From assembly GCA_963708025.1 (NCBI GenBank), contig CAVPSB010000025.1, positions 1-64,000 on the forward strand: a DNA stretch of 64,000 nt, in the 5' to 3' direction. The translations under genes and the position numbers were made by a program. Within the stretch, counting starts at the first letter, position 1. Every line of letters starts with the position of its first letter. This DNA is from an uncultured Candidatus Rokubacteria bacterium (GTDB taxonomy: Bacteria > Methylomirabilota > Methylomirabilia > Rokubacteriales > DASRDR01). Positions 9,547 through 35,635 of this stretch are shown here, in pieces. The notes below the pieces were generated by a model, which saw only the letters and a list, made by a program, of their open reading frames with translations, did not search any database and had not been told where the DNA came from.

Positions 9547-10110
9547 GGGCATGCCCCGGAATCGGTACGCCCGTCGAACGCGATCCTGGCGCCACTGCGC
9601 GATGCGTCATGCCGCGTTTCGCCGTCGCTGACTGAGCACCGCCGGGATGTCGCGCCACCCGTCGACGCGCCGCAGCCGGATCTGGCCGCTGGCCACGAGG
9701 CCGAAGAGGAGGACCAGCGCCGCGTCCTCGGTGGGCAGGCTGCCCTGGGTCTTCACCCGGCGCCGGAACTCCTCATGCAGCCGCTCGATCACGTTTGTGG
9801 TCCCGAGGCCGCGGGCCACCAGATCGTCCAGGCAGCCCTTCCACGCGTCAAACGATTCGCCGCCGCAGAGGTCCAGCGCCACGAGCTGCTTCTGGCCGTC
9901 GGCGCGAATGGCGACCACGCCGAGGACCGGGACGCTGGTGACCTTCCCAGCGCTCCGGACCCGCAGGGCGATGGCGTCGAGGTAGACGGTCTTCGCCTGG
10001 GCGATCGAGGAAGCGAGCGCCGCGCTCGACGCGGAGCCGCCCCGTCGGTCCGCTCGACGTCGGCCGACGCCCGGTCACGCGGCGCTCGCCGACCTGGCGG
10101 CGCGTCATGA
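9547..10110 (-). mobile_element. IS256-family transposase remnant (internally deleted)
   Basis: VYLDAIALRVR..GQKQLVALDLCGGESFDAWKGCLDDLVARGL is joined directly to TTNVIERLHEEFRRRVK. GGG-starting terminal sequence at 9547. Confidence 0.8.
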
Positions 10111-11790: not shown

Positions 11791-11806
11791 TGGCACGCCG
11801 GATGCT
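11791..11806 (+). promoter_or_regulatory. Candidate sigma54 promoter
   Basis: TGGCACGCCGGATGCT (GG-N10-GC). It is very close to the RBS, so the geometry is imperfect. Confidence 0.45.
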
Positions 11807-11818
11807 CCATGGAGGACC

Positions 11819-12067
11819 ATGCGAGACAGACGGCCCCGACTCATCGTCGTTCGGCGGGGTGCCGTCGAGTTGTTCGAAGAACTCCAGGCCCGGTACAGGA
11901 GGGACGGGCGTACCACCATCATCTGGGATCGGCGGATTGCCGAGGGGCCGAACGAGGGGTCTCACCGGTCGCCACGCGAGCGACGGTTTCCGCGGGATCG
12001 CGACATTCTGATCGATCGCGGATTCTTCGTGACGCGAACCGGAAACCGTAGAGTCGAGGCCGGCTGA
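11819..12067 (+). CDS. Small Arg-rich DRR/ERR-motif protein
   Basis: GGAGG RBS. RLIVVRRG..LFEELQARY..TTIIWDRR..ERR..DRGFFV. Confidence 0.7.
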   Translation: MRDRRPRLIVVRRGAVELFEELQARYRRDGRTTIIWDRRIAEGPNEGSHRSPRERRFPRDRDILIDRGFFVTRTGNRRVEAG

Positions 12068-12106
12068 GGTCGGGCGCGGAGAGGCCTTGCGCTTACGAGC
12101 TGCCTG

Positions 12107-12523
12107 CTATGAGCTCGATAGTTGAGCGCGGGCTTGGGTCTCTGCCTGGGTCAGTAGTTCTTCAAGGTTGGACCCCGTCGTCGGGAAGCACGCCGAACCG
12201 AAGCCCATCGGGGCGAGATCCGAGAGCTCCTGATTCAGTCGCCCAATGACGGGCGCAATCTCCTCGAGCCCTACGTCAATGAGAAGAAGCCGCACCCCCG
12301 ACATTGAGGGCATGAGGCAAACGAGGTCGGAGCCGCGGATAGCCGCGCCTACGAGCCGAGCCATCGGCTCAGCCGATTCGACAGAACTCGAAAGAATCGT
12401 GATGATGGTGACTGGATACTGAAGTCGCAGAGCCTTCTTGATTTCCAAGCTTGCCACAAAGCGAAAGAGATGCTCCTCAACAACTTGGGCGCCTTCCGGT
12501 CTTTGCTTCATTTCCTCGCTCAA
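12107..12523 (-). CDS. Degenerate stand-alone GGDEF-like protein
   Basis: EIKKALRLQYPVTII..IRGSDLV..LLLIDV..GSACFPTTGSNLEELLTQAE follows the GGDEF scaffold. The GG(D/E)EF motif is absent. Confidence 0.6.
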   Translation of the reverse strand: MSEEMKQRPEGAQVVEEHLFRFVASLEIKKALRLQYPVTIITILSSSVESAEPMARLVGAAIRGSDLVCLMPSMSGVRLLLIDVGLEEIAPVIGRLNQELSDLAPMGFGSACFPTTGSNLEELLTQAETQARAQLSSS

Positions 12524-12860
12524 TCGGTCCTAAAGCCGCTTCCAAAGCATGGCACGCCTGCCCGGTAAGTGGAAAACGCCGAGCTTGCACGACCGACGCA
12601 CACTCTGACTTGGGCGAACGAGGCTGTCAAGATGAAGAAGTTTGCGCATTCGTCGGATCCTGTACTAGGCGGCCGATTGACTGGTGCTGACCGAGCTTCC
12701 CACGCCCGCCGTGAACGGATGGCCGCTCTTGGGTTCCGGTCATTTCGACTACCTTGGGGTGCCGACCCGTTGACCGCCGCCGCCTCGACGCGGATGCGCC
12801 CGAATGACGTGCCCATCGGCGCCGAGGCGACGGCTTTCCATCTAGTAGAGGCCTTCGCCC

Positions 12861-12983
12861 CTATCCGGCATACCCGTCCACGGTGTCATCAGGGCTAGCG
12901 GACCCGACGCCGGTGAGGCCCGCGAGCTTCTCCTCGTGTTTCACCAGCTCCGGTTCGACAAACTCCTCTTTGCGCGGCTCCAT
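12861..12983 (-). CDS. Lasso-type RiPP precursor A3 (40 aa)
   Basis: GGGAGGA RBS. MEPRKEEFVEPELVKHEEKLAGLTGVGSASPDDTVDGYAG. Leader is near-identical to A1. Confidence 0.85.
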   Translation of the reverse strand: MEPRKEEFVEPELVKHEEKLAGLTGVGSASPDDTVDGYAG

Positions 12984-13089
12984 CATTCCTCCCTTGGCTT
13001 TCAATCCACCCTTCCACCCTTCTGCTCCGTTTGCGCTCGACGACCGCTGCCGTCCCGGCCAGCCTGGCGCTGACGCCACCTTGCTGGCC

Positions 13090-13215
13090 GGGCGGCTGCG
13101 GCTCCCGGCGCTTCATCGGGGACGACGTGCCGATGCCGTCCATTCCGGTGATGTCCGCGAGCTTCTACTCGCGTTTCACCAGCTTCGGCTCGACGAACTT
13201 TACCTGCCTTGGTCC
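13090..13215 (-). pseudogene. Degenerate RiPP precursor copy A2
   Basis: ..RQVKFVEPKLVKRE*KLADITGMDGIGTSSP.. has the same leader, an in-frame TAG and no start codon. Confidence 0.8.
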
Positions 13216-13334
13216 TAAGTCGGCGTTGAAGCGTCGTCGGTGTTATACCCGACCGCCCCGGCGGTGAGGTCCGCAAGCTTCTCGTGGTACTTGACCAGCT
13301 CGGGCTCGACGAACTCCGCCTTCCGCTCTGTCAT
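13215..13334 (-). CDS. Lasso-type RiPP precursor A1 (39 aa; not in ORF track)
   Basis: My translation: MTERKAEFVEPELVKYHEKLADLTA-GAVGYNTDDASTPT*. FxxPxL RRE-binding motif, Thr(-2), Gly1, Asp8/Asp9. Starts 17 nt after the upstream stop. Confidence 0.9.
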   Translation of the reverse strand: MTERKAEFVEPELVKYHEKLADLTAGAVGYNTDDASTPT

Positions 13335-13351
13335 GAATCCGCCTTTCCGGT

Positions 13352-15248
13352 TCAGAGGTTCGCTCCGCGTGTGATGCCCAGCAGGTCCCGGACACGATCA
13401 CCCCCTTTCGTCGTCGCTCGTGAGGTCCCAAAATACCGCTCCGCCTTGAGTAGGCTGTTCACGGCATGCTGAGTGTGATCGATGCGCATCGTGCTATCCG
13501 CCAGCGAAGCGCGAAACCCACCCCAGACTCGCTCCGCGTGCTCCACGTAGAAGCTGTTATCCTTCGTGAATTGAAGGCGTAGAGTAAAGAGGACGGCGGT
13601 CAGCGCCGCCCGCTGATACAAGGCGGCGCGCTCGCGCTCCCCCAGTTGGCAGGCAAGGTCGTATGCCTCCAAGATCCCCTCGTTATAGGTGGCGCTCGGA
13701 ATCCCGGGCACCCGGCCGCCCGCGTATCCGCCCACGTAGTCTGGATACGGGGCGTTGACGCCGGTGTACTGGCGCGGCAGCATCCAGTCGGCCATCTCGA
13801 ACACGAACTCGGCATAGTCGCGCTCGCGAGTCAGCCGGTAGAGCTGCGCGTAGGCGGCCATCTGCCAGGGAGGGAAGGCCGAGGGTCGCTCCCGGCGGAA
13901 AAAGTCGCGGTAGTGAGGCAAATGCTCGTCGGAGCGCTTCGGGATATCGCGGGTCGGGATGCCGGGCGTGAAAAGTCATGAGTGCCAGCATCGCCTCGCC
14001 CGGGTAGAAGTCCTGCCCGTCGGCCCGCGTTGACGGGGGAAAATACGCGAGAAATCGACCGTTCGGCTGCTGGAGGCAGAGGATCGCCTCGGCCAACCGC
14101 TGTCCGAGCGCCAACAACCCATCGTCCTCGGCGGCGGCAACCGTCAGAAGGCCAAATGCCGTGGCGCCGAGCGTCACCTCTCCGCCATCGCCGTCCACCA
14201 GGGCGCTATTCGCGCCGGCCGGCCCGGGCCGTGTCTTCCCCTGGACGAAGGCGAGCGCCCGTCGGGCCGCTGCCCAGTACCGGGCGTCTCCGAAGCGGTG
14301 GGCCAGCTTCACCATCAGCCAGGTCGTGGCGACCTGGCGCACCACGTTGTCTTCCGGGGCATACCGGCCTTCGGCCGGCGCATACTGGTAGGCGAACCCA
14401 CCATCGGCCCGCTGGGTGCGAACCAGGAACTCGGCCCCTTCTCGGATCGCCTCGGCGATCCGATCCGGAGACCAGTCCCGGGCGCTGACGAGCCGGTTGG
14501 CGCGCAGCAGGTCGCACACGGCGACGCCACCCTCCCCCTCGATGAAGCTCGTGGAGCAGAAGCGCGAAAACCGGATTCCCGGGCGGCGATACGCCTTCCG
14601 CGGCCATCCGCCCTTCTCACAGAGCTGCGGAATCAACTCGCCGATCTTCCAGTTCCTGGTGATGGCCATCGCGCTCTTGAACAGTGCCCGCCGCCCTTCT
14701 TTCTCCACCATCACCCCGTGGATCCCCGGCTCGATCACCTCGACGAATCGCTTCAAGCGGCGCGCTCGGACGCGACTCGCCGGGCCCAGCACTTCGAGCT
14801 CGATCCTCAGGCGGGAAAGCTCATCGGCTCCGAGGGGGACGACGCGCTGGTCACGAAGCGTCCGCTGGGCCGCGAGGACCGTATTGTGGAACAGGGATCC
14901 GCCGCCCTCGCCGCGGCACCCCCGCATCGTCCCATCGACCCAGAACGTCACGAACACGGGCTCGGTGCGGTGCAGGAGCCGGGGTGCCGAGACCGGCATC
15001 GTCCCGTTTCGCTCGCCGCCCAGGTGGTGCGTGACGACCGTCCGGGCCAGATGAAGGAGAGAGCGCTTTTCTTCCTCACCGAGAATGGGCGCCGGACCGT
15101 CGTCCGCGGCGCTGGCCCGGCCGCGCCTCGACGCGACAAGCGGGAGATTCTGGCACCGGGTCGAGATTGCGCGTGCGACGTGTCTGAACAGACGAGTCTT
15201 CGCGGCGGCCTGGGCGAAGGCGATTGTCCGAGCCGCATGCCAATTCAT
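13352..15248 (-). CDS. AMMECR1-domain + alpha-helical toroid protein (+1 frameshift near 13920)
   Basis: VFVTFWVDGTMRGCRG..DQRVVPL..EL..LRIELEVL (AMMECR1). Then FLVRTQRADGGFAY, LQQPNGRF and RIDHTQHA. ATGA-coupled to the nucleotidyltransferase. Removing one base joins ORFs 13683..15287 and 13352..13921. Confidence 0.75.
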
Positions 15249-16498
15249 CGGACGGCCGCCCGCCTGTCCTTCGCCCGCATGCCCCACCAGCGGGCGGGAT
15301 GAAACGAGTAGAGGAAGTTCAGGAGCTCAGATTCCGGGTATCGCTTGGGCAGGAACCGATTGTCTTCCGGGTAATGCACCGCCGTTCGGTAGAGGGCGCG
15401 CCCGACACCGACCCATCGCTCCTCGCTCGCGAGGTGCCAGAGCAGTGCGTGAAAGGCGGAGGCCTGGTCTGGCGCACAGGATCCGAGGTCGGCCAGCCAC
15501 CGACGGCTCACCAGATCGATGAGCGCCCGCTCGCACATCCCACCGCCGGCCAGAGCCTGCGGCGGGATCGCGGTCCCCAACACCCTTTGCGTGAGTCCCA
15601 GGGCCACTCGGACCCGTCGGGCAATCCCATACCGTTCGGCCGCGCCGCCCAGATGAGCCCAGTCGAGTCGCTGTCGAGTCACGGCCAGGTCGATGTCGAC
15701 GAGGCGAGCGAGCCGGAGCTGCCCGTAGGCGTCCCCCGTGAGGTGGAGGCAAAGGTGGAGGAGGAGGTGCTCCGGGCGGAGAGAGAGAGTCTCGACGCCA
15801 GCGATTGTGGTCGCCTGCGCCTCCTGCCACAACTCGGCGATGTTGACGCCTGTGCCCGGCTTGGCGATGTGCCAGTGGAGCTCGAGCGGAAAGAACTGCC
15901 CCTCCCTCCAGAGCTGGTAGTGGAAGTGAAAGCGCGCATAGATCTTCGCGGTCGTCTGGACGTTGACCGGGCCCCGGGATCGGGGCAACAGGCCGGCACG
16001 TCGTGCGCGGGCCCGGAGGTCGGCCGGGACGATGGGATGCAGGCGATACCCGCGCTCTTCCAGCAGCTCCATGGCCCTTGCCCGCGTCTCTTTCGGCACG
16101 AGAAGATCGAGGTCGCCCATGTACCGGAGGGCGATGTCCCCATATAGCGAGGGGGCCATGGCCGCCCCCTTCAGGACCACCACCGGGACCCCGGCCTGAT
16201 GAAGCCCCTCCAGTACCCCTCCCAACTCACGGTAGAGGTAGGCGTTGCGCGCGAGATTGTGGACGTAGAGGGCCCGACAGCGCTCGGCGAGGGCCCGCAC
16301 AGGGCCATCGCCCTGTCCGCTGGCGACAAGGGGAGCCAACGTACGGTACACGAGTGGCCCGACACGGTGATCGGCAGCCGTGGCGGCAACGTGGTCCCAG
16401 CGAAATGCTCCGGGGTGGAAGTCCTTCGACGCGAGCCGCGGGGCGCGCCGGCCCAGCTCGATCAGCAGGCGCCGCTCCTCGGCGAGAGGTGTATTCAT
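15245..16498 (-). CDS. Nucleotidyltransferase (NTP_transf_5-like, lasso-cluster associated)
   Basis: VVVLKGAAMA..LYGDIALRYMGDLDLLV, LELHW, HLLLHLCLH, RLVDI. ATG overlaps the B2 stop (ATGA). Confidence 0.9.
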   Translation of the reverse strand: MNTPLAEERRLLIELGRRAPRLASKDFHPGAFRWDHVAATAADHRVGPLVYRTLAPLVASGQGDGPVRALAERCRALYVHNLARNAYLYRELGGVLEGLHQAGVPVVVLKGAAMAPSLYGDIALRYMGDLDLLVPKETRARAMELLEERGYRLHPIVPADLRARARRAGLLPRSRGPVNVQTTAKIYARFHFHYQLWREGQFFPLELHWHIAKPGTGVNIAELWQEAQATTIAGVETLSLRPEHLLLHLCLHLTGDAYGQLRLARLVDIDLAVTRQRLDWAHLGGAAERYGIARRVRVALGLTQRVLGTAIPPQALAGGGMCERALIDLVSRRWLADLGSCAPDQASAFHALLWHLASEERWVGVGRALYRTAVHYPEDNRFLPKRYPESELLNFLYSFHPARWWGMRAKDRRAAVR

Positions 16499-16959
16499 GT
16501 CGCTTGACGCTCCCGGCCGGGATGTCGATAGACCACCCTGAACCTCCTGGTCTGGTGGGTATCCCGTTCCAGGTAAAGCTCGCCGTTTCGCACCAGCCAG
16601 GCATGGCCGAGCAACCGGCGCACGCTCCGATACGGCGGCTGGTCGTCTTCGTATTTGACTCCGAAGCAGATCTCCAGGTTCGCCGCCTCGCCGCCTAGGA
16701 ACCGGTAGAGCGTCAGGCTCCGCGCCAGACAGGGGCCGCGTGGGTTCCACATCCGGCGTCTCAGGACAGAGTCGGTGCAGGCCACCACGAGATCGTCGTC
16801 AGCGGGGTGCGCGCGAGCCGCGGCAGTGCAAAGCTGAAGCAGGCGCGGCAGGCTGCACAGCCGAAGCAGAAGGGGAAGGATGGAGACAAAGGTCCAGATT
16901 CGGACGAACAGGACAGCCTTCCGGACCCACGAACCGCGGAACGGACTGCTAGAGCGCAC
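16495..16959 (-). CDS. Lasso peptide B2-type leader peptidase (transglutaminase-like)
   Basis: GTG with GGAGG RBS. Catalytic motifs PCLARSLTLY, FGV and GHAWL. Confidence 0.9.
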   Translation of the reverse strand: MRSSSPFRGSWVRKAVLFVRIWTFVSILPLLLRLCSLPRLLQLCTAAARAHPADDDLVVACTDSVLRRRMWNPRGPCLARSLTLYRFLGGEAANLEICFGVKYEDDQPPYRSVRRLLGHAWLVRNGELYLERDTHQTRRFRVVYRHPGRERQAT

Positions 16960-17962
16960 GGGCCCTCCCCGCTGTTCGTGGCTGAATACCGGCAACGAGG
17001 ACCCTGATGGCCCGACCGGGATCCGTGAGGAAATCGCGGCCGTGGAGGAACTCGTAGGTTGACGACTGCCGGACGAGAGCGCCGAGGGTTGCCAGCTGCC
17101 GTCTTGCGAGCTGGGGGCTCGGGGAAAGTGCGCTCTCGCCCAACAAGCGCCTAAAGGCCTCCGTCTGGGGGATCGGTCGGAGGACGCTCTCCGGCCCGGC
17201 GACGATTCGCGGGAACACGATGAAGGCGGGCCGACATTCTCCGACATGGGATCCACGGTATAGCTGCTCAGGACTGAAGTTCCGTTTGCCATTTTCGAGC
17301 GGTGGCAGCTCTTTGATGAACGACAGCTCGGTGTAGTGATCCACCCACATCGGGTCGAGGTTGAACGTCCGAAAGAATGCAACGCAGCGGACATCGTCCG
17401 GTCCGCCCGCGAGGAAGACGAAATCGTCGGTGACGTACTGGAACCCCGCATGGCGGATGAGAGCGAGCGCCAGGGACGTTTTCCCGCTGCCTGACGGGCC
17501 GGGGAGCAGACACCCGGCGCCGTCTTTGGTCACGGCGGCGGTATGGACGCCGTAGAACCCGCGGTGCCGGGCGAGTTCGAGGAGAGCGACCGAGACCAGC
17601 TCCATCAGGAGTCGCTGATTGGAAGCCGCCTGCCGGCTGACCCACACTGTCGCCCTCGAGGCGGTGGGCGTCACCCGTAGGCACGCGCCTCTTCCCGAGT
17701 CGTAGAAAAAATGACGACCCAGGCTCGCGGTGCGGTAGTTCGGATGCCGGCTGACCGGCTCGGCGGCCAGGGGAATGATCGGAAGCTTTTCCGGCGCCAC
17801 AACGGTCAGCCGCAGGTAGAACCGCTGAGGACCGAGGTGGCCGAGTCCCGCCTCCAGATAGCGCAGGTAGCCGGAGAGGAACTCGCGCACCACCGAGTCT
17901 CGGCAGGCGAGAGACACCGACTGGACGGTCAAGGGCGGGGCCGCCAATTCAGCGGACCTCAC
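16949..17962 (-). CDS. HPr kinase-like P-loop kinase (RiPP-associated)
   Basis: VHTAAV, GPSGSGKTS (Walker A), YVTDD. Confidence 0.85.
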   Translation of the reverse strand: MRSAELAAPPLTVQSVSLACRDSVVREFLSGYLRYLEAGLGHLGPQRFYLRLTVVAPEKLPIIPLAAEPVSRHPNYRTASLGRHFFYDSGRGACLRVTPTASRATVWVSRQAASNQRLLMELVSVALLELARHRGFYGVHTAAVTKDGAGCLLPGPSGSGKTSLALALIRHAGFQYVTDDFVFLAGGPDDVRCVAFFRTFNLDPMWVDHYTELSFIKELPPLENGKRNFSPEQLYRGSHVGECRPAFIVFPRIVAGPESVLRPIPQTEAFRRLLGESALSPSPQLARRQLATLGALVRQSSTYEFLHGRDFLTDPGRAIRVLVAGIQPRTAGRARAL

Positions 17963-18067
17963 CCGCTCGAAGAAACGGAATATCCTCGAGCACGCGCTCG
18001 AGCCGCCCGATCCGCCTACCCTCGATCCCGGCGCGGTGGCCGCCGGGTTCCTTGACCGTTCCCATCG

Positions 18068-19732
18068 CTACAGGTTCCCCCGCCGCGCTTCCCGGACCAG
18101 ATGATCGGCCGCCCGCATCGCGAGGGCGTGGATGGTCAGGGAGGGCGAGTCGCCCCCGCCTTGAGTCACGAACGTGCTCCCATCAGTCACGAACAGATTT
18201 CGCACGTCGTGGGCCTGGCCGTACCCGTTCACGACGGAGGTTCGGGGATCGTCACCCATCCGGCACGTCCCACCCATGTGCGTGATGAAGCTCATGTCGT
18301 ATGACGAACGCTGCTGGATGATCTCCACCGCCCGGGCGGCGCGCAAGATCTCGCCGATCTGGCGACGCATGAAGGCAAGCATCTCCAGATCGTTCGGGCG
18401 CAGGCAGGTGGTGATCCGGGGCAGCGGAATCCCGTGGGCATCCTTCGCCTCCGGATCGAGCATTACCATGTTGCTCGCGTGGGGAAGCTGCTCGCCGACC
18501 CCGTACACGGTCAAAGCGTGTCCGAAGAACTCGCGCATGAACGCCTTGTGCTCACTGCCCCATCCCGGGGCCAGACCCAGCGCGTAGGCCACGGGCCCCA
18601 TGACGTCGAGAGCGGACACCCCCAACAGGACGCCACCGGCAAAGCGGTCGCTCTTCTCCGGACGATTGAAGTCCCAGATCCGCGCCTCGATCGGCACACC
18701 GCGGTGCGCATCGATGCGGTCGGCAAACAGTGCCGTCATACTCAGGGTGATCGTTTCCTGGAAGAACCGTCCTACTGTGCCGCTGCCGTTGGCGACACCA
18801 TTCGGAAACGCCGGGCAGGCGGAGTGGAGAAGCAGTCGCGGCGATTCGAGCGCTCCCCCGGCGAGGACCACGACGCGTGCCTTCTGGCGACGCGGGATCC
18901 CGTCCGACCCGAGATAGACGACGCCCGTTGCCCGTTCTTGGCCGTTGAGCTCGATCTGGGTGGCTACGGCCTCGGTGTGGATCTGGACACGCCCGGTGGC
19001 CTCGGCCATCGGGACAAAGGTTCGATCCATGCTGGACCGGGCCCCGGTCATGCAACCCCAGAGGCAACCATTGCAGTAGTCGCACGCAGGGCGACCGTCG
19101 TCGGCTTGCGAGAGGATGGCCAGGGAGTTGGGGAGCAAGGTGAGTCCCAACTCCTGGCACCCCCGGCGGACGACCTCGCTGCCTCTGCCCAGGGGGTGGG
19201 GTGGGCGGGGATAGGGCTCCCGGCGAGGCTTGAAGGGATTGTGGTGAGGGCCCGCCACCTGGAGAACCGCTTCGGTCTCGCGGTAGTAGGGCGCCAGGTC
19301 CTCATAGGAGATCGGCCAATCGGCGCCCACGCCGGTGAGCGACCTCAGCCGAAACCCTTCCGGAGCGAGGCGATGCGCCTCTCCCTCGTAATGCAGGGTG
19401 CTGCCCCCCACGCCCTTCACCCGGAAGACGCGGGGTGGCGTCCGCCGCCTGGTCGAGTTGTGGAGCCCGCGGGCCTTCGACCAGGAGCGAAGATCCGAGT
19501 ACGAGCGTTGCAGCCGTTCGCACGGCCCCCATGTGTACTGCCGGGGACCGGCGAGGAGCTGAGGAAACGCCTCCCGGTCCGGCCGGTGGCTGTGAAAGTT
19601 GCGCCGCGGGTCGAACCGCGGGCCAGCCTCCACGACCGCCACCGATAGCCCGGCTGCCCCGAGGCGCTGAGCCACCACCGCGCCGCCGGCGCCCGAGCCG
19701 ATGACACAGACATCCACCTCGCCCTGATTCAC
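18068..19732 (-). CDS. GMC-family FAD oxidoreductase
   Basis: VIGSGAGG, GVGGSTLHY, CDYCNGCLWGC Cys cluster, HMGGTCRMG, VTDGS, SPSLTI. Confidence 0.92.
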   Translation of the reverse strand: MNQGEVDVCVIGSGAGGAVVAQRLGAAGLSVAVVEAGPRFDPRRNFHSHRPDREAFPQLLAGPRQYTWGPCERLQRSYSDLRSWSKARGLHNSTRRRTPPRVFRVKGVGGSTLHYEGEAHRLAPEGFRLRSLTGVGADWPISYEDLAPYYRETEAVLQVAGPHHNPFKPRREPYPRPPHPLGRGSEVVRRGCQELGLTLLPNSLAILSQADDGRPACDYCNGCLWGCMTGARSSMDRTFVPMAEATGRVQIHTEAVATQIELNGQERATGVVYLGSDGIPRRQKARVVVLAGGALESPRLLLHSACPAFPNGVANGSGTVGRFFQETITLSMTALFADRIDAHRGVPIEARIWDFNRPEKSDRFAGGVLLGVSALDVMGPVAYALGLAPGWGSEHKAFMREFFGHALTVYGVGEQLPHASNMVMLDPEAKDAHGIPLPRITTCLRPNDLEMLAFMRRQIGEILRAARAVEIIQQRSSYDMSFITHMGGTCRMGDDPRTSVVNGYGQAHDVRNLFVTDGSTFVTQGGGDSPSLTIHALAMRAADHLVREARRGNL

Positions 19733-20319
19733 GGATGCCTCGCGGGCAGGGAGGGCGGGGTCGCCGTATCCTCGGGAGTCTGGATAGGCGGCCCGAACCC
19801 GAGCACCTCTCGGCCGGTGGCGCTCATGTAGAAGGCTTCAAAGGCATGCCGGCGCACGGTCCAGAAGAACTCACGGGCCATCGGGAGGTCGTGATAGAAG
19901 AGGGCGAGGCGCCCCTGCTCGAACGGCGACTGTCCGCGCAAGTCCAGCTGAACCAGGATCTGTCGCTGCTGACCGACCGTCAGCGCGAGAAAGGATCGGC
20001 GAAAGCACTTTTGCGCGGCGTACTCGAGCCAGGCGACGCCACGCCGATAACGCAGGTGCAACGCTGGCGCGGCGTCGCTGGCGGTTTCGATGTAGCCGAC
20101 GGCATCCGCCTCGTGGGCACCGGGGCCGTCATCGGTGGGTACGATATGGCAAACCACTGCTTCGATGACGGTCCGCTCGAAGGAGGTGAATCGGCCCGAC
20201 CGCGAGGCGAGCGTGCGGGGGTGCGAAGAGGAGAGCCCGCGCCACCCATCGTACAGCCAGCTCCACGGATAGAGAAGAAGGACTCCCGTCTTCGCCAGCG
20301 ATCTCAGTCCGGCCGTCAT
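19729..20319 (-). CDS. Gluconate 2-dehydrogenase subunit 3-like small subunit
   Basis: IVPTDDGPGAHEADAVGYIE, FLALT..QQ.QIL, FF..VRRHAFEAFY..G..LGF.P. Stop overlaps the GMC start. Start is uncertain (20394 is an alternative). Confidence 0.8.
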   Translation of the reverse strand: MTAGLRSLAKTGVLLLYPWSWLYDGWRGLSSSHPRTLASRSGRFTSFERTVIEAVVCHIVPTDDGPGAHEADAVGYIETASDAAPALHLRYRRGVAWLEYAAQKCFRRSFLALTVGQQRQILVQLDLRGQSPFEQGRLALFYHDLPMAREFFWTVRRHAFEAFYMSATGREVLGFGPPIQTPEDTATPPSLPARHP

Positions 20320-20448
20320 CCGTGGGCCGATGGTGGAGTCTCGCGGGTCAACGCCGGCATACAAGGTCTCGACCCTTCCCCCGAAGACCGGCAACTGACG
20401 GTTTGATCTGCGCGTCGCTCCCTCGTCGGCCCTTTTCTGAGATCCGGC

Positions 20449-20736
20449 TCATCTCGCTTCGTCGTGAACCAGATTTTCGCGCACCAAGTTGCCGACGACC
20501 CGCTCGGTGCTCTCCGTCGCGTGCGCAAGGTCGACCTCGTATTGGACCGTCAACTGCCGGGCGATCGCCTCAACAGTGGGATACTGATCTATGAGATTCC
20601 AGATCTCGAGGCCCGTCGAATTCAGGCTGTAGTAGGACGTGGTGTCCAGGTCGAGCAACACCCCCCCGTCCTCCATCTCGGTGCATACGACCGAGGGGTT
20701 CTTGATCAGGCGTTTCTCCGGCACGTCCACCTCCAT
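20449..20736 (-). CDS. PqqD-family RiPP recognition element (RRE / lasso B1)
   Basis: GGVLLDLDTTSYYSLNSTGLEIWNLI..IARQLTVQYEV..LVRENLV. GTG 20724 with GGAGG is an alternative start. Confidence 0.93.
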   Translation of the reverse strand: MEVDVPEKRLIKNPSVVCTEMEDGGVLLDLDTTSYYSLNSTGLEIWNLIDQYPTVEAIARQLTVQYEVDLAHATESTERVVGNLVRENLVHDEAR

Positions 20737-20929
20737 TCTCCGGGCCCGTACGGCTGGGCTCGCCCTCACCCGGTCGACCCCGGAAAGGGATCAGAGAAAT
20801 CGGCCGCCCGAGGGCCCCAGCGTCCCCGTCGGTGGCCACGCAGGCCCGGGCCGGCGTGCGGGTTCCGTGTCGCCGCCAACCGTCACGCGGATCTCTCGCC
20901 GGAACATGGACCAGCCCTTCATCCACTCA

Positions 20930-20945
20930 AGCAAGACCCGAGCCA
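20930..20945 (-). promoter_or_regulatory. sigma54 promoter of the RiPP operon
   Basis: Minus strand reads TGGCTCGGGTCTTGCT (GG-N10-GC). An AT-rich tract and TTCCCGA..GCGA direct repeats lie 100-140 bp upstream (21047-21080). Confidence 0.65.
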
Positions 20946-21382
20946 GCTTGACCTCGATAACTAATCGCGAACTTGACCGAAAATCATGTGCGCCGCACTC
21001 AGTGCGTGAAAACAAAGCGTCTAGATTGGGAAAAACAATTCGCACGTTCCCGACAAATGCGACATTCCCGAAACAGCGATCCGGGGCCGCCGACGTCCAG
21101 GCGACCGGGGAGGCCGATTTCCGCTGGTGAGCCTTGACCACCCCTCCGTGGGCGCGCGCGAGGCGCCGCGGCCAGCTCCGGGAGGCCCGCGCTCGGCGCG
21201 AGCGGGCGGCGAGGTCGGGCCGCTGACGAGTCTGCGCGGAACGCGCGGTCGAGCGCGCGGCAGCTCCGGGAACCGCAGCTCCAGCGGACTGCCAGGCGGC
21301 AGTCTGTGAGCGTCGCAGCTGGCGGCGGCTTGTTCCAGGGCGGAGTCCTAGTGTAGCATCGAGATCCACGGAGGGCTGAGAC

Positions 21383-22387
21383 ATGGAACCGCAGGTCACG
21401 ATCGTGGTCGTACCGCGGGAACGGTTCAGCGTCACCCGTAAGTCTCTCGAGAGCATCTACGAGCATACCGACATACGCTTCCGGCTGGTCTACGTGGACG
21501 GGGGCTCTCCGCCCCGGACCCGCCGGTATCTGCGGGCTCAGGCCGCGTTTCGGGGCTTCGAGCTCGTTCGGACCGAATACTACCTCTCCCCGAACCGCGC
21601 GCGAAATCTCGGGCTGGCCAGAGTCACCACACGGTATGCCGTCTTCATGGACAACGACGTCGTGGTCGCGCCCGGCTGGCTCGGCGCCCTGGTCCGGTGT
21701 GCCGAGGAGACCGGGGCCGCCATCGTCGGTCCCCTCAACTGCGAAGGGATGCCTCTCCACCAGGTGATCCATTTCGCCGGAGGGGAGTGCGGTGTTCGCG
21801 AGGACCGCGTGGATGGACGGATCGAGCGACACCTCATCGACAAGATCTCCCGGCAGGGACAGCGGCTGAGCGACGTGCGCGAGCAGCTTCGCCGTGAGCC
21901 GACCTCCGTCGCCGAGTTCCACTGTCTGATGGCTCGGACCGACGTGTTCCAGAAGGTCGGTCCCTTCGACGAGGCGCTGCTGAGCGTGCGAGAGAACCTC
22001 GACTTCTGCATGGCGGTGGCCCAAGCCGGGGGTACGATCTACATCGAGCCGGCCTCCATCATCACCTACGCCGGGGATGAGCCGCTCGCGTTCGCCGACA
22101 TGCCCTACTACATCCTTCGCTGGAACGATGCCTGGACGCTGGGCAGCTTGCACCACCTCCGCGACAAGTGGAACCTGACCGAAGATGAATACTTCCTCCG
22201 GCAGTACAAGAACCTCTCCTGGCGGCGCAAGCTGTACCTGATCCGGCCTCTCTTCCGCTGGGTCCCCGCCTGGCGGATCCGCCTCGTGCTGGAATGGCTG
22301 GTGGCTCCTCTGGACAGGGTGGTCAGCCGCTGGATCGTGACCCGGTACACGCGCCGCCAGGCCGAGCTTCTTCGAGGTCAGGCCTAG
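21383..22387 (+). CDS. GT2-family glycosyltransferase
   Basis: VTIVVV, VYVDGGS, RARNLGL, FMDND (DxD), GPFDE, ENLDFC. Confidence 0.9.
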   Translation: MEPQVTIVVVPRERFSVTRKSLESIYEHTDIRFRLVYVDGGSPPRTRRYLRAQAAFRGFELVRTEYYLSPNRARNLGLARVTTRYAVFMDNDVVVAPGWLGALVRCAEETGAAIVGPLNCEGMPLHQVIHFAGGECGVREDRVDGRIERHLIDKISRQGQRLSDVREQLRREPTSVAEFHCLMARTDVFQKVGPFDEALLSVRENLDFCMAVAQAGGTIYIEPASIITYAGDEPLAFADMPYYILRWNDAWTLGSLHHLRDKWNLTEDEYFLRQYKNLSWRRKLYLIRPLFRWVPAWRIRLVLEWLVAPLDRVVSRWIVTRYTRRQAELLRGQA

Positions 22388-24490: not shown

Positions 24491-24514
24491 GGTTATCCAC
24501 ACCGGTGGATAACC
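24491..24514. promoter_or_regulatory. Inverted pair of DnaA boxes before dnaA
   Basis: GGTTATCCACACCGGTGGATAACC: perfect TTATCCACA plus an inverted TTATCCACC. Confidence 0.85.
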
Positions 24515-24555
24515 GGGTGGGAAACCGTCCTTCGGCTGGAGCAGGAGTCCCCGCG

Positions 24556-25872
24556 ATGCACGACGTTCTCTGGGAGCGCCTCCTTACGGCTCTCGAGGCC
24601 CGGCTGCCCCCGCAGGCCCTCGACACCTGGATCCGCCCCGGCCGCCTCCTCGCCCATCGCGACACCCACTTGGAGATCGGGGTCCCCAGCAAGTTCCTCC
24701 GCAGCTACATCGTCGATCACTACCTCCCGGACCTCCAAGCGGCCGCCGAGACCTGCCTGGGCCCTCACGCCCAGGTCACCGTCTCCGTGGACCGCCCAGC
24801 GGCCGGAGTGTCCCCCAGGGTACTGCCGGCCCCCCCGGCGCCCCCGCCACCGGCCGAGCTGGACGGCCGCTACACCTTCGACACCTTCGTGGTCGGCTCC
24901 TCCAACCAGTTCGCCCAGGCCGCCTGCCTCGCCGTCGCCGAGCTGCCCTCCCGGGCCTACAACCCGCTGTTCATCTACGGCGGCGTCGGGCTCGGCAAGA
25001 CCCATCTCCTCCACGCGATCGGCCACCAGATCAGCCAGACGCACCCCCAGTTCCGCGTCGAGTATCTCTCCACGGAGAAGTTCACCAACGAGCTGATCGG
25101 GGCCATTCGCTACGACAAGACGCCCGACTTCCGCCATCGCTACCGGACGATCGATCTCCTCCTGATCGACGACATCCAGTTCATCTCCGGCAAGGAGCGG
25201 ACCCAGGAGGAGCTGTTCCACACCTTCAACGACCTCTACGAGTCGCATCGCCAGATCGTCATCTCGAGCGACCGCTCCCCGAAGGAGATCCCCGAGATCG
25301 AGGAGCGTCTCCGTTCCCGATTCGAGTGGGGCCTCATCGCCGACATCCAGCCGCCCGATTTCGAGACGCGGGTCGCCATCCTCAAGAAGAAAGCCGAGCT
25401 GGACCGGGTGGCGCTCCCCGACGACCTCGCCTACTTCATCGCCAACAAGGTCAAGTCCAACATCCGCGAGCTGGAAGGATCCCTCGTCCGCATCCGCGCC
25501 TTCTGCAGCCTCACCGGCCGCGAGCTCGGCCTCGATCTCGCCCAGGAAGTGCTCGCCAACATCTGGGGAACCGAGGAACGCCTCATCACGATCGACGACA
25601 TCCAGCGCCGCGTGAGCGAAGTCTTCGGCGTGAAGCCCCACGATCTCCGCTCCAAGACGCGGACCAAAGCGGTGGCCTTCCCCCGGCAGGTCGCCATGTA
25701 CCTCGCCCGCCAGCTCACCAGCGACTCCTTCGCCGACATTGGCCGGAGCTTCGGCGGCAAGGATCACACGACGGTCCTTTACGCCGTGCACAAGATCGAG
25801 ACCCTCCTCCAGGAAGACCTCAAGTTCCGGAAGACCCTGGACCACGTCATCAACACGATTCCCTTCGAGTGA
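24556..25872 (+). CDS. dnaA: Chromosomal replication initiator DnaA
   Basis: YTFDTFVVGSSN, YNPLFIYGGVGLGKTHL, LLIDDIQF, RLRSRFEWGL, FGGKDHTTV. Confidence 0.99.
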   Translation: MHDVLWERLLTALEARLPPQALDTWIRPGRLLAHRDTHLEIGVPSKFLRSYIVDHYLPDLQAAAETCLGPHAQVTVSVDRPAAGVSPRVLPAPPAPPPPAELDGRYTFDTFVVGSSNQFAQAACLAVAELPSRAYNPLFIYGGVGLGKTHLLHAIGHQISQTHPQFRVEYLSTEKFTNELIGAIRYDKTPDFRHRYRTIDLLLIDDIQFISGKERTQEELFHTFNDLYESHRQIVISSDRSPKEIPEIEERLRSRFEWGLIADIQPPDFETRVAILKKKAELDRVALPDDLAYFIANKVKSNIRELEGSLVRIRAFCSLTGRELGLDLAQEVLANIWGTEERLITIDDIQRRVSEVFGVKPHDLRSKTRTKAVAFPRQVAMYLARQLTSDSFADIGRSFGGKDHTTVLYAVHKIETLLQEDLKFRKTLDHVINTIPFE

Positions 25873-27353: not shown

Positions 27354-27907
27354 CTATTCCCGTCTTCGATTCTTGGGCTGCAGCCCTCGCTCGAGCTTCC
27401 GTGCGGCCTTCAGCATCGTGGACTCGTCGGAGTGGGCGTAGATCCCCAGGGTCGTGGTGATCTGCGCGTGGTCGAGCCACGTCTGGACGGTCTTCGGATC
27501 GACCCGCGCCCGAGTCATCACGGAACCCGTCATGTGCCGCGCATTGTGGAAGCGGAGCGTCGGGAGCCCGCAGGCTTTGCGCGTCCGGTCCCACGCCTTC
27601 TTCGGGAAGGCGCGGAGGACCTCGCCGTACTGAGTGATCATCGCCGGGTCGTGCCGGCGCCAGAGAACAGGACGGGATGCAGCTCCGGCTCATGGGCCCT
27701 GGCGTAGGCTACGAGGCGCTCCCAGGTCTCCGCGTCCGGGAGCATCGGCGCGGAGCGGTCGATGATCGGGAGGCGCACGCGGCGCGAGGGGTCCCGCTCG
27801 AGCAACGGCGGATCCCAGACGTTCACGGCCAAGCTGCAGAGATGCCGGAGGGCCTTCAGGTAGTGCGCGACGGTCTGCTCGCTGCGGAACCGAACCTTCG
27901 GCTGCAC
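27354..27907 (-). pseudogene. Tyrosine integrase remnant (two pieces, internal deletion)
   Basis: LRFHNARH (HxxR) and WLDHAQITTTLGIYAH (H..Y). The upstream piece SEQTVAHYLKALRHL is core-binding-like. Confidence 0.85.
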
Positions 27908-29137: not shown

Positions 29138-30904
29138 CTAAGGCCGTGCCTCCTTCGTGTTGGCCTTCAGCCATTCAATGATCGCCGCCAACCCTTCCTC
29201 ACCCACCTGCTGGGCCGGCATCGTCGTTCCCGGGACGATCTCTTGCGGGTTGCGGATGTAGTCTTGCAGGGTACGTTCCGTCCACGTAAACGAGGATTTC
29301 CTCAGCGCGTTCGAATAATTCACGCCGGGTTGCGTTCCCGCCTTTCGACCGAACATTCTGTACAAACTGGGGGCGCCGGCACCGGAATGACAGACCAGGC
29401 AGGATGACAGCTCGGGTACCGTTGGAGCTTCGACACTCACGGAAGCCGACGCCTTCTGTAAGATGGTGAGGGCGGCTTGGTCGTCATGGAACATGACGAT
29501 CGCCCCGTTGCCGCTTTGGTGGACGTACCGAATGCGGTAACCGATCGGAATCCGTTCCATGAAACGAACTTTGCCGCCATCGTAGATCGTGCGGTAGAGT
29601 GACGCGTCCTTGAGCGATGCCAAGAGGAGCGAACCGTCCCAGTCCGGGTGAAAGCCCTCGACGTAGGTGATGTTGGAAAGCCCGACGTCGGGGATGAAGG
29701 CAAAGACCGGTTTTTCGAAGCGGCTGTGCCGCTGCTGGCGGAGTGAAAAGGGCCAGGATGTCGTGTTGTAATTCACTCCATAGGTTTCCGCTGGCCAGCC
29801 GAAATTGGGGATCTCGCCCCGCTGAATCCTCTCTCGCGATATCAGGTTCAGCTCCTCGCCGCCCTGAGGTCCGTGTTCGGTTGTGAACACGCCTTCCTTG
29901 GTCACCACGATCCCTTGGTGGTTGCGATGCCCCATCGAGATCAGGCGATACTCGCCCGTTTCTGTGTTCAGCAGGATGGTCTTACCATAGTCGTTGTCAC
30001 GCTCGGCTGGAAGCGGGTCCGGGCGGGTTATCCCGTCATGGCCGTAGTCGCCGATGGTCACGACGAGATGGTGCTCGTCGAAAAGAGCCAGGCGGTTTCC
30101 GCCCTGCCACCAGATGAGCGGCAGACTTTCCTCTAGAACCAGCTGGAGGCAAGGCTTTGACCGGTAGATCACTTTCCAATCCGCTCCGTCAGCAAGATCG
30201 CCGAGACTTGAGACGGTCTTCTTTGCCACGCGGGATTGATAGCAGCGGTTTTCCGAATCCCAGGCGGAATACCCAACGAAGACCTCGGTGGCGCCCTTCT
30301 TTCGCGGCACTGCCAGAATGCCTTCATAGCGAAGTCTGATCGGCTCGACGGGCGGCCTGGACGCCGATTTCGATCCGTGCGCGAGGAAGTACTCACGTAG
30401 AGCATCGAGTCCGTTGTGGGGTGCGGCAAAAGGTACCTCCTCGAGCTGCACGTCCTGATCGCGGAGGGTAAGGCGGATCATGCGGCCTTGGCCCTCGAGG
30501 ATCAGGACATCGCCCCCGAAATCGGTCACGCCGCCGCCCTTCATTCCTCCTTTGCTCACATCCCAAAACGGGTGGCCACGGTCCCCTCGCACGAGGATGC
30601 GGTTCAAGACCAAGGATTGGTGCCGGAAGTCGCTCTTCTCGATCGCCCGATAGAGGCGTGGCCTCGGCGCGGGAGTCGATCCCGGAGAAGAACGGCCGGA
30701 AAGCGCGGTGATCATCCCGTAGCCGGATCGTATCCCTCGGTAAGAGGCGGCGATCAGCGAATAGGGGAAGACCTCGTATCGTCCGACGGCCGCTCCATAG
30801 GCGAAAACGAGGCCGGACGATGCGGCGCCCCAGGCCAGACCGAGAAAAAGGTGGCGGCGGACAAGCCCCGCGAAGTCCTTGACGAACGCTGCCAGCGCCT
30901 TCAT
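29138..30904 (-). CDS. PQQ-type glucose/sorbosone dehydrogenase-like beta-propeller fused to C-terminal cytochrome c
   Basis: N-terminal TM helix, GHRNHQGI, TEHGPQGGEELNLI, NFGWP. CLVCH heme motif and a cytochrome c2-like tail (NPQEIVPGTTM). Confidence 0.85.
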   Translation of the reverse strand: MKALAAFVKDFAGLVRRHLFLGLAWGAASSGLVFAYGAAVGRYEVFPYSLIAASYRGIRSGYGMITALSGRSSPGSTPAPRPRLYRAIEKSDFRHQSLVLNRILVRGDRGHPFWDVSKGGMKGGGVTDFGGDVLILEGQGRMIRLTLRDQDVQLEEVPFAAPHNGLDALREYFLAHGSKSASRPPVEPIRLRYEGILAVPRKKGATEVFVGYSAWDSENRCYQSRVAKKTVSSLGDLADGADWKVIYRSKPCLQLVLEESLPLIWWQGGNRLALFDEHHLVVTIGDYGHDGITRPDPLPAERDNDYGKTILLNTETGEYRLISMGHRNHQGIVVTKEGVFTTEHGPQGGEELNLISRERIQRGEIPNFGWPAETYGVNYNTTSWPFSLRQQRHSRFEKPVFAFIPDVGLSNITYVEGFHPDWDGSLLLASLKDASLYRTIYDGGKVRFMERIPIGYRIRYVHQSGNGAIVMFHDDQAALTILQKASASVSVEAPTVPELSSCLVCHSGAGAPSLYRMFGRKAGTQPGVNYSNALRKSSFTWTERTLQDYIRNPQEIVPGTTMPAQQVGEEGLAAIIEWLKANTKEARP

Positions 30905-31814
30905 CGAAGGTCCCTCAAGAAAACGGAAGGCCGGTGAAGTCTACAGAACCTCGCGGCGTCTCGCGGCCGATCGGTCAGGCGCGCCCTCAGGCGGCCGACG
31001 CGATCGCCCGCCGTCCGGGTACGTGGGGATCTCAAGGTCATGATCTCCTGCCCCTGCTCCTGATCGCCAACATCAAGCTGCGAATCGATGGTCTCATGCT
31101 GTTCCCAGGCGCTTGGTCGCGACGGACTCTTCGAAACCTCTGCAGATTCGGACTATTGTCCACAGCAGCACAACCGCCTCGCGCGTCGCGGGCCGCTGCG
31201 ATCGTACCCGCGAGCAAGGCGCTGGTCGCCCTCCACGGCAGGCTCACCCCCACCTGACATCACCCGCCGCTCACCTTGCCGAGTCTGGATACCGACTGCG
31301 CGATCCTCGAAATGGTTCTGTCAATCACACGCAGTGGTCTGGTAATTGCGCGGCCCGTTCTCCACGTCCATGGTCACTTCAACGCGTCCAGCTCCGCTAT
31401 CGTGCCGAACAACGGCGGCGGCGGTGGTTGCGCCGTTACGCCCTCGGCGGCGACAGCCGCCGCAGCGTTTCCAACCTTCCAGCTCTCTATTTTCGGCGTC
31501 CGAAATCCTCGGGTCGGCGATCCCTTTTCGGGTCACCCCACAGAGCCATTCTGCTCCCTCTTCGCCAAGCGGGAACTGGTAGTGGTGGGTGTACGCTTGA
31601 CGAGTTTGACTCCCCATTGCCTGCCCGGCCACCGCGGGCAGCACTGTCATCTCGACGCCCAAGCTGCAACGGCGGACTGTATCCAGGAGGCTAGGCGGTC
31701 CTATGCGCCTTTCTCGATCCCCGTCCTCGCCCCGCGTCACCCCGGCTCGGGCCTCCGGTGGCCAGAGAATAGCGCGCAGCGTGCCGGCGGGCAAGGGCAG
31801 TTCCGCCGCCTCTT

Positions 31815-32167
31815 GATGGTCTATAGAAATGTCCTCCCTAACTGTTCAGTAGAAATGTCCTCCCATGGAGACATGGGAGACCGTCACGATGAGTCGAAAG
31901 GAGGCCCCCCGGGCCGGGCTGGTCAAGGCGGCCCTCGCCGGGCAGATCACCAATGCCCACGGCGCTCACGCCCTCGGCCTCAGCCTCCGGCAGTTCCGCA
32001 GCCTCAAGGCTCGCTATCAGGAGAAGGCGATCCGGGGCCTGGTGCATGGGTTGCGGGGCCGGGCCTCCCCGCGGGCGCTGGAGGTCGAGGTCCGGGATCG
32101 GGTGCGGGAGCTCATCCAGACCACCTACCGGGAGCTCAATGACGCGCACTGCACCGAGAAGCTGTGG
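31815..32167 (+). mobile_element. IS1202/ISNCY-like element left end and truncated transposase
   Basis: 15-bp direct repeats TAGAAATGTCCTCCC (31824, 31850). HTH sequence ..ALGLSLRQFRSLKARY..GLVHGLRGR. Cut at 32168 by an IS21 end. Confidence 0.7.
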
Positions 32168-33358: not shown

Positions 33359-33359
33359 A

Positions 33360-33704
33360 CGGGACTGATGACGGCCCGGCATCGGGCGCGCCTGCCTCGG
33401 TTGCTCGGGCAGAGCGCCGCCGCGTTTGGCTTCGCCACCGACCTGTGGACCACCGGCCGGATCGCCACCCTGATCCGCCGGCGGTTCGGCGTGCTTCTGC
33501 ACCGCGCCCATGTCGGGCGGGACTTGGCCACCCTTGGCTGGTCCTGCCAGAAGCCCGAGCGGCGGGCGGTCGAACGCGATGAGGCGGCGATCGCGCATTG
33601 GAAACGCTATCGCCGGGTCGCCATCAAAAAAAAGCCCAGCGCCTGAACACCCATCTGGTGTTCCTGGACGAGTTGGGCTTCCTCCTGATCCCGAACGTGC
33701 GACG
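33360..33704 (+). mobile_element. IS630-family transposase fragment
   Basis: DLWTTGRIATLIRRRFGV..LGWSCQKPERRAVERDE, A8G slippery site, then LVFLDE.GF. Confidence 0.8.
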
Positions 33705-33813
33705 TAATGTGAAGCTGAGGAAGGCAGGACAGAACGGATTACTGCGGCCTACACGGTCAACTCCACATTACTGACGGCTCACCATTAGTCGAGTAATGTT
33801 TAGCTCCACATTA

Positions 33814-34791: not shown

Positions 34792-34905
34792 GTCCTCGTC
34801 GCCTCGCGGGCCCCGCTTCTCCTCACTCCAGGACCCAGGAGTGACGCACGCGGCGGAGGGCGCGGGGGGGCCGGCGCCGTCGCTGCAGCACGGCGCCGAC
34901 GTCGC

Positions 34906-35621: not shown

Positions 35622-35635
35622 AGGTCTGGACCCAC

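Follow-up and report, generated by a model that had tools for sequence, protein, structure and literature searches.

Does an operon that holds the leader-processing genes of a lasso peptide pathway, and no gene for the ring-forming cyclase, still make a lasso peptide? The question is raised by a minus-strand operon (20769 to 12861) of an uncultured Candidatus Rokubacteria bacterium from soil. The DnaA of this genome is 87% identical to one from a metagenome-assembled genome of Candidatus Rokuibacteriota, and its next matches come from Rokubacteria/Methylomirabilota. The operon lies in a 64 kb stretch of DNA, referred to here as the window, which forms the first 64 kb of the 482 kb contig C25; the genome comprises 8.17 Mb in 49 contigs, with a marker-gene completeness of 99.67% and contamination of 8.18%. 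An initial annotation had read the operon as a cluster for a RiPP (a peptide that is ribosomally synthesized and then modified post-translationally) with lasso-type leader removal, and had offered two explanations, a new RiPP type or a cyclase acting in trans. With moderate confidence, we read it as a cyclase-free, lasso-derived counterpart, outside the Bacillota and using a B2 peptidase, of the linear polyphosphorylated peptide (LPP) clusters and of Bsf-type phospho-lasso clusters. By analogy with those systems, its likely products are short linear peptides that carry phosphate. The reading is carried by the gene set, intact catalytic motifs, the absence of a cyclase, a conserved synteny and a conserved leader. 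The features of the operon are listed from its upstream to its downstream end.

20931..20945, minus strand: sigma54-like -24/-12 element, TGGCTC-N5-TTGC (TGGCTCGGGTCTTGC), one mismatch
20449..20736, minus strand: PqqD-type RiPP recognition element (RRE), B1-like; PF05402, 60.9 bits; reading frame open to a GTG at 20769
19729..20394, minus strand: Gluconate_2-dh3-type small subunit; PF13618, 54.1 bits
18068..19732, minus strand: GMC-family flavin adenine dinucleotide (FAD) oxidoreductase; GMC_oxred_C, 73.9 bits; GMC_oxred_N, 56.8 bits
16949..17962, minus strand: predicted HPr-kinase-like peptide kinase (K); Hpr_kinase_C, 22.4 bits, below the cut-off
16495..16959, minus strand: B2 transglutaminase-like leader peptidase; PF13471, 39.7 bits; NF033537, 34.8 bits (cut-off 33)
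15245..16498, minus strand: NTP_transf_5 nucleotidyltransferase (NTase; N); PF14907, 174.9 bits, covering 3-249 of the 249 profile positions
13352..15248, minus strand: AMMECR1 domain joined to an (alpha/alpha)6 toroid; PF01871, 81.7 bits
13215..13334, minus strand: precursor A1, 39 residues; MTERKAEFVEPELVKYHEKLADLTAGAVGYNTDDASTPT
13100..13203, minus strand: decayed precursor copy A2; KFVEPKLVKRE*KLADITG...
12861..12986, minus strand: precursor A3, 41 residues; MMEPRKEEFVEPELVKHEEKLAGLTGVGSASPDDTVDGYAG

The open reading frames (ORFs) and the Pfam and NCBIfam profiles bore out the gene order, strand and families of the initial annotation, and its four overlapping junctions were correct (19729/19732, 16949/16959, 16495/16498 and 15245/15248). 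The junction at 16949/16959 rests on a GTG start and that at 15245/15248 on an ATG start, as in the orthologue P0015; the GMC start overlaps the small-subunit stop by 4 nucleotides. Among the genes that define a lasso cluster, the RRE and B2 were present and the Asn-synthetase-like macrolactam cyclase was absent.

The search for a cyclase covered both the window and the whole genome, as the initial annotation had proposed. Its statement that the window holds no Asn-synthase-like cyclase stood: PF00733 gave five matches in the genome and none on C25, and a hidden Markov model (HMM) built from five Asn-synthase homologues reached a best E of 0.22 against the six-frame window. No lasso-type cyclase was found among the genome-wide matches. 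For all five PF00733 proteins the top-scoring models were those of asparagine synthase (glutamine-hydrolysing) or of related amidotransferases. Their highest score with the lasso-cyclase model NF033535, which has a cut-off of 525, was 279.5 bits, and the two full-length ones begin with MCGIAG, the amidotransferase nucleophile. Run on the whole genome, the HMM returned the same five and three extra matches, of which one on C12 (GATase and Pribosyltran domains) was read as PurF-like, one on C32 (GATase and SIS domains) as GlmS-like, and both were set aside. The genome's Asn-synthase homologues are all of the AsnB type, plus one divergent protein, on C26, that is unlinked to the operon. Three of the PF00733 matches lie on contig C4, among peptide transporters, an arginase and a TrkA-type channel. 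Contig C4 has a third-position G+C content near 0.97. At 29341-36238 (L003-L005, L007) it encodes a 431-residue Asn-synthase-domain protein that lacks a GATase domain, and a further Asn-synthase gene there is divided between two frames; the 8% contamination of the genome or assembly indels may lie behind these oddities.

Homologous neighbourhoods were collected with the kinase, for which close relatives are scarce: four stand at 98%, 63%, 62% and 47% identity, and the others do not exceed 33%. Scans with the kinase alignment gave 80 metagenome loci and 17 loci from species-representative genomes, 97 in all with one identical pair, and a scan of genome contigs with the single kinase gave 101 pattern matches with no relative among them. 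The kinase was present in 96 of the 97 loci. The initial annotation had named a cyclase in most homologous clusters as the finding that would speak against it. Of the 22 loci whose flanks reach 5 kb or more on both sides, one held an Asn-synthase homologue, an AsnB-like protein about 9 kb away (L131); B2 occurred in 21 loci, and the eight of these with flanks of at least 5 kb held none. The closest parallel was L041, where the kinase is 47% identical and the order runs ABC ATPase, PqqD, kinase, B2, NTase, AMMECR1/toroid and then a precursor, which is the order of the window minus the small-subunit and GMC genes. The L041 precursor, MQQSREHFVEPEIVKHQ, is truncated by the contig end, and is homologous to those of the window and in the same position. 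At L045 the order was kinase, B2 and AMMECR1, with the NTase absent.

The next kinase relatives are about 35% identical, and the named ones belong to metagenome-assembled genomes of Acidobacteriota (Thermoanaerobaculia). The four annotated loci of this group, all from metagenomes (L046, L049, L051 and L052), share a protein of about 490-530 residues followed by PqqD, B2 and kinase, and none of the four holds an Asn-synthase homologue. The NTase follows the kinase, and Wzy_C lies upstream, in L049, L051 and L052; radical-SAM/SPASM proteins occur in L046, L049 and L051. After PqqD-B2-HprK at L046 (11909-12593) and L054 (12665-12874) stand small ORFs in tandem, whose starts resemble signal peptides and whose tails are rich in Cys, those of L046 being followed by a sigma54 activator. 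These ORFs are unrelated to the window precursors and were rejected as relatives. In G006 and G011, genomes of the window's own family, cassettes of PqqD, kinase and NTase were without an Asn-synthase homologue over 16.8 and 20 kb.

The initial annotation counted three precursor copies, of which A1 and A3 are intact; A2 is a pseudogene without a start codon and with an in-frame TAG inside the leader, and its region shows a 7-base deletion in a contig of the RNA-library run X20. The precursors conserve the leader pattern (E/H)FVEPE(L/I)VK(Y)H...L-x-x-L-T. A1 has an FxxPxL leader, a Thr two residues ahead of a Gly, and a core Asp-Asp. Two relatives of A3, P0040 (91%; ending ...KLADLTGVGSVSPDDTFPDGSV) and P0041 (83%; ending ...KLADLTGVGSGNFDDTFPDGSG), retain the leader, Thr-Gly, Val-Gly-Ser and Asp-Asp-Thr. 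Across A1, A3, P0040 and P0041 the leader is near-invariant and the remaining core variable; the C-terminal residue is not conserved, being Thr, Gly or Val. The longest contig was 10,746 nucleotides both in the cluster of P0041 and in that of the 98% identical kinase, P0002. Thr is found at position -2 in most lasso systems. With Thr at -2 and the cut site placed accordingly by prediction, the core of the A3 type would be numbered V1-G2-S3...D7-D8 and that of A1 G1-A2-V3...D8-D9. Of the lasso leader-processing module named in the initial annotation, the RRE and B2 are present, and the precursor leaders have the FxxPxL motif and a Thr; with the predicted cut site, the first core residue would be Gly in A1 and Val in the A3 type.

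The enzymes of the operon are 96-98% identical to those of one close relative and about 47-56% to further ones, and their catalytic residues are kept. The ATG of PqqD at 20736 agrees with the starts of its orthologues; the protein scored 51.8 bits with lasso_PqqD_Bac and 51.7 with lasso_PqqD_Strm, both NCBIfam models and both under the cut-off, and it is 52-55% identical to the PqqD proteins of L041-L043. The kinase reached 46.7 bits with HprK_rel_A, likewise under the NCBIfam cut-off. In the kinase alignment the P-loop GPSGSGKTS and the DD pair are invariant, as are H140, G155, G158, G160, K161, T162, D179 and D180, which align with the H-G-G-G-K-S-D-D motif of BsfK (PMC10368454). Cys77, His119 and Trp121 of B2 are invariant in all five aligned B2 proteins, and this B2 is the sole Transglut_core3 (PF13471) gene in the whole genome. 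The NTase has an orthologue in L041 (E 3e-111); beyond its own genome the best match is 41% identical (G001), and matches at E 0.001 occur in 33 of the 61 genomes. None of the relatives searched has the window operon. The genome tallies (61 for the NTase, 60 related genomes for the C26 protein) include the unpublished genomes G038 and G055, on which no particular statement depends. Three more NTP_transf_5 paralogues in the genome (C49:201689-207647 and C31:183521-184258; L037, L038) adjoin GT1 and GT2 glycosyltransferase and ABC-2 transporter genes, and no PqqD or kinase was found among the ORFs scanned beside them.

The operon was compared with three published systems. LPP clusters (Popov et al., Nat Commun 2026; PMC13381572) have the order lppA-K-B-S-D-N without a cyclase and yield linear polyphosphorylated peptides. 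Their leader consensus is YxxPxVLxHQxIxFETxxS; cleavage follows Thr(-1) and needs the RRE, LppK puts one to four phosphates on core Ser3, and deletion of the NTase gave no change in the authors' host (PMC13381572). The window operon shares with them a separate RRE, a kinase that resembles HprK, an NTP transferase and the lack of a cyclase, a leader of the form (Y/F)xxPx(V/L) followed by His, Thr near the cut and Ser soon after it, and a location near sugar-polymer genes. Set against the window leader FVEPELVKHEEKLAGLTGVGS, FxxPxLVxH and Thr with a later Ser are common and the rest differs. The two also differ in that LppS is a signal peptidase I of the archaeal type, whereas the window operon has a lasso-type B2; no member of the S24/S26 peptidase family was found among the operon proteins with Pfam. 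The LppA core has 45 residues as against 14-16 in the window precursors, the host is a member of Rokubacteria, and the AMMECR1/toroid gene and the GMC pair are added. In the Bsf cluster of Bradymonas sediminis (bsfA, K, B1, B2, N, C, D; Duan et al. 2023, PMC10368454), BsfK phosphorylates core Ser3 and the RRE boosts the phosphorylation. Here the RRE, B2, kinase and NTase, the Gram-negative host and an acidic core residue at ring-closing distance are alike, whereas Bsf has the cyclase BsfC, the exporter BsfD and Ile(-2), and the window operon has neither C nor D and has Thr(-2). The operon fits equally well as an LPP counterpart and as a Bsf-type cluster minus C and D. Paeninodin and pseudomycoidin clusters also use an HPr-kinase homologue and a nucleotidyltransferase as tailoring enzymes, but they have a cyclase and their kinase acts on a C-terminal Ser (PMC8498205); in pseudomycoidin the phosphate receives one or two hexoses from the N enzyme (PMC8498205).

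Among NCBIfam systems, HPr-rel-A comes near in its PqqD-like and HprK-like pair, which gave the best or near-best NCBIfam matches. Because the scores lie far under the cut-offs (TIGR04352, 46.7 against 200; TIGR04353, 20.8 against 35), the operon was not taken as a member. Literature searches for 'HprK-related kinase' and for RRE-Finder with HPr kinase returned no paper.

Each chemical step of the pathway proposed here is drawn by analogy from LPP, Bsf and pseudomycoidin. The PqqD-type RRE would bind the FxxPxL leader motif of the two precursors of about 40 residues. The HPr-kinase-like enzyme, aided by the RRE, would phosphorylate a core serine, possibly repeatedly, with Ser3 of the A3-type V-G-S as the predicted site, and the NTP_transf_5 enzyme would extend the phosphate with a sugar or a nucleotide. 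The RRE and the B2 cysteine protease would then cleave past the residue that follows Thr, leaving Thr at -2. Since no macrolactam would be formed, the product would be linear, a phospho- or phosphoglyco-peptide of 14-16 residues and acidic. The AMMECR1/toroid fusion may contribute one further step, and the small-subunit and GMC pair, a recent addition, may oxidise a sugar moiety. Of the two explanations in the initial annotation the first is favoured, lasso-type recognition and removal of the leader without a macrolactam and with phospho, nucleotidyl or glyco chemistry in its place. The type is not wholly new, as LPP, which has this RRE, HprK-like kinase and NTP-transferase core and no cyclase, was published in 2026. 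If the reading is right, cyclase-free lasso-derived phosphopeptides reach beyond the Bacillota, to which the LPP authors state that their clusters are restricted, and the lasso B2/RRE module for leader removal can serve a ring-free pathway.

The AMMECR1/toroid gene is present as first described, but in this assembly it is split by a frameshift of one extra base near 13915/13916. Frame A aligns to the intact L041 orthologue through residue 465, and frame B resumes at residue 465. An intact orthologue of 631 residues, P0015, is 96% identical. The extra base is absent from contigs of the DNA runs X1 and X2 and of X20, all from related populations, so the frameshift is private to this assembly; it reflects an error of assembly or else a mutation that arose very recently. 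P0015 belongs to a sub-family of 23 proteins (P0015-P0037; 51-56% identical to P0015) in which the RGC and RIDHTQH motifs are invariant and which was seen in metagenome data only. In species-representative genomes the relatives, from archaea, Patescibacteria and others, were no closer than 22-42% identity over the best segment (about 26-34% for matches of near full length). At the 57 loci with such distant fusions no PqqD, HprK, B2 or NTase neighbours were found, and 47 neighbour ORFs from 13 of them showed no recurrent partner, Memo, radical SAM or isoprenoid gene. The fusion is retained in the window, L041 and L045, the last despite having no NTase, and is therefore a marker gene of this operon sub-family. 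Of the tailoring set that the initial annotation called unusual, the AMMECR1/toroid protein is the conserved extra.

An AlphaFold model of the AMMECR1/toroid protein had a mean pLDDT of 76.1 and a pTM of 0.69. Its N-terminal domain matches the fold of PH0010 (1vaj; Foldseek E 8e-13), and a PDB profile search with the protein returned AMMECR1 structures only. The AMMECR1 domain scored 83.8 bits with TIGR04335 (AmmeMemoRadiSam system protein A; cut-off 99), and thereby resembles the family of the structures 1vaj (PH0010), 1zq7 (MM0484) and 1wsc (ST0229). It differs from that system in that the operon has no Memo or radical-SAM partner and in that the domain is fused to a toroid and linked to RiPP genes. 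For the C-terminal toroid, the Foldseek matches were class II terpene cyclases (MstE, SHC) and, about as strong, AGE-type sugar isomerases/epimerases, with E of 1e-5 to 1e-6; Pfam gave only sub-threshold matches to Pec_lyase, TED, SQHop_cyclase and Prenyltrans, and the toroid was assigned to no class. The AMMECR1 family, named after a human disease gene, is conserved from archaea to humans, and to our knowledge no reaction has been assigned to it. Burroughs et al. (2019, JBC) reportedly linked the Memo/AMMECR1 system to the modification of nucleotide bases and isoprenoids; literature searches returned no paper tying AMMECR1 to RiPP biosynthesis and none joining AMMECR1, Memo and isoprenoid. 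As a low-confidence guess, the substrate of the fusion may be the phosphate-bearing peptide as presented by the RRE, or the sugar of that peptide. It is a tentative suggestion that the protein is an RRE-guided peptide-modifying enzyme that installs the class-defining change of a new RiPP sub-family, B2-dependent and cyclase-free, for example at the conserved Asp-Asp-Thr or at phospho-Ser. The operon places an AMMECR1-domain enzyme beside a defined peptide substrate of about 40 residues, which makes its chemistry testable; if the suggestion is true, a substrate and a reaction would for the first time be defined for the domain.

The small-subunit and GMC genes are a strain-variable two-gene insertion of 2.3 kb between PqqD and the kinase, because contig joints bypass them (18098->20433 in X2; 18197->20305/20311 in X1 and X2) and L041 lacks the pair. 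The tailoring set is heterogeneous in this respect. Other contigs of X1 and X2 do cover both genes, and the insertion provides a natural experiment, with and without, for oxidative tailoring. Small subunits of the Gluconate_2-dh3 type usually carry a twin-arginine signal. By inspection, this one has GLRSLAKTG at the corresponding position, with a single Arg, and the pair may therefore stay in the cytoplasm.

Several observations weigh against the reading of the operon as a working cyclase-free pathway. Asp-Asp stands at lasso ring-closing distance in all four intact precursors, and a linear product leaves this conserved pair unexplained. Core position 3 of A1 is neither Ser nor Thr, and the prediction of Ser3 therefore fits the A3 type alone. 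LPP clusters have an MsbA-like exporter, LppD, whereas none is present in the window operon, and a scan of the operon proteins and of 52 further window ORFs revealed no ABC exporter. In this assembly one of the precursor copies is dead and the AMMECR1/toroid frame is shifted, and the link of AMMECR1 to the operon is drawn from three loci only. The G+C content of the operon is 66.6%, against 71.2% for the genome, and a lower-G+C stretch of 35 kb with transposase and integrase fragments surrounds it. A genome of the same family, G001, has the same kinds of genes together with a lasso-type cyclase. There the set lies at about 9700-15600 of L036 (C7:24500-44499), within an exopolysaccharide locus, in the order NusG-like gene (by eye), B2, PqqD, Asn-synthase homologue, candidate precursor (KLTWERPTLIYVGRLGEVVAGGSGK...), kinase and NTase; the Asn-synthase homologue has 643 residues, 88.8 bits and no MCG start. 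Downstream in G001 lie a true AsnB, glycosyltransferases, an epimerase and a carbamoyltransferase, and upstream Wzy_C and chain-length genes.

The linked cyclase of G001, together with Thr(-2), Gly1 of A1 and an Asp at core positions 7-9 of every intact precursor, would suit a true lasso cluster that is served in trans by a cyclase gene outside it. The genome offers no fitting candidate for this part of the initial annotation, and we consider it unlikely. Its nearest approach is the C26 protein (C26:17643-19463; L179:8644-10467), a divergent AsnB-like protein of 607 residues with SSGYDS at the PP-loop position, which scored 70.5 bits with TIGR01536 and only 45.9 bits with the lasso-cyclase model NF033535 (cut-off 525) and gave no PF00733 match at E 0.001, with a weak match to GATase_7. 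Its gene stands among GT1, GT2 and methyltransferase genes, between two adenylate-cyclase/AAA/TPR regulators, and no RRE, B2 or precursor was found near it. Full-length relatives (54-55%) occur in two of the 60 related genomes only, G036 and G042, and because neither matched the operon NTase, the C26 protein is not inherited together with the operon. The remaining Asn-synthase homologues belong to the AsnB type with the MCGIAG nucleophile, and the kinase relatives are cyclase-less.

More doubtful still is a decaying, non-functional remnant of a lasso cluster that has lost its cyclase. The lower-G+C island with its transposase, integrase and IS fragments, the dead middle precursor, the AMMECR1/toroid frameshift and the missing exporter would agree with decay; the privacy of that frameshift, the level of identity and the kept catalytic residues of the enzymes, and the recurrence of the cyclase-less order in L041 speak against it. 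Contigs from the metatranscriptome runs X19 and X20, 90-99% alike, map on the precursor, toroid, kinase, GMC and B2/NTase genes, and they are only a weak hint of transcription, because DNA carry-over is possible. With the contigs that lack the frameshift, they suggest that the gene set is still live in related populations. We give the same low standing to a cassette that decorates a glycan or a protein and makes no peptide product, as PqqD/HprK/NTase cassettes in sugar-polymer operons might do. GT2 and GT1 genes lie directly upstream of the operon on the opposite strand, the cassettes of relatives adjoin glycosyltransferase, Wzy_C and exopolysaccharide genes (L036, L039, L046-L052), and capsule loci are a common setting of both paeninodin clusters and LPP clusters, the latter restricted to Bacillota according to the authors (PMC13381572). 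Against decoration stand the small ORFs with lasso-type leaders, which occupy matching places in the window and L041, the precursor relatives with conserved leader and variable core, and the B2 leader peptidase. The cyclase-free, lasso-derived pathway was accordingly preferred.

The sigma54 promoter proposed upstream of the operon is present as a site about 195 nucleotides from the ATG of PqqD. The sigma54 consensus is TGGCAC-N5-TTGC, from which the site departs by one mismatch; matches of this grade are not enriched in the window (36 observed against a shuffle mean of 46), and the match is no better than chance. A scan of 11800-21400 for terminators and sigma70 promoters gave nothing that marks the ends of the operon. 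Directly downstream of A3 lies a 138-residue ORF (12107-12523, minus strand) with no Pfam or NCBIfam match. The operon was probably acquired horizontally. Positions 1-35000 of the window have a G+C content of 66.2%, against 71.9% for 35001-64000, and hold fragments of a Mutator transposase (9607-9918), an integrase (27354-27641) and IS21/HTH_33 (33368-34188). The dnaA gene (24505-25872) is also situated in this lower-G+C part, beside GT2 and GT1 genes.

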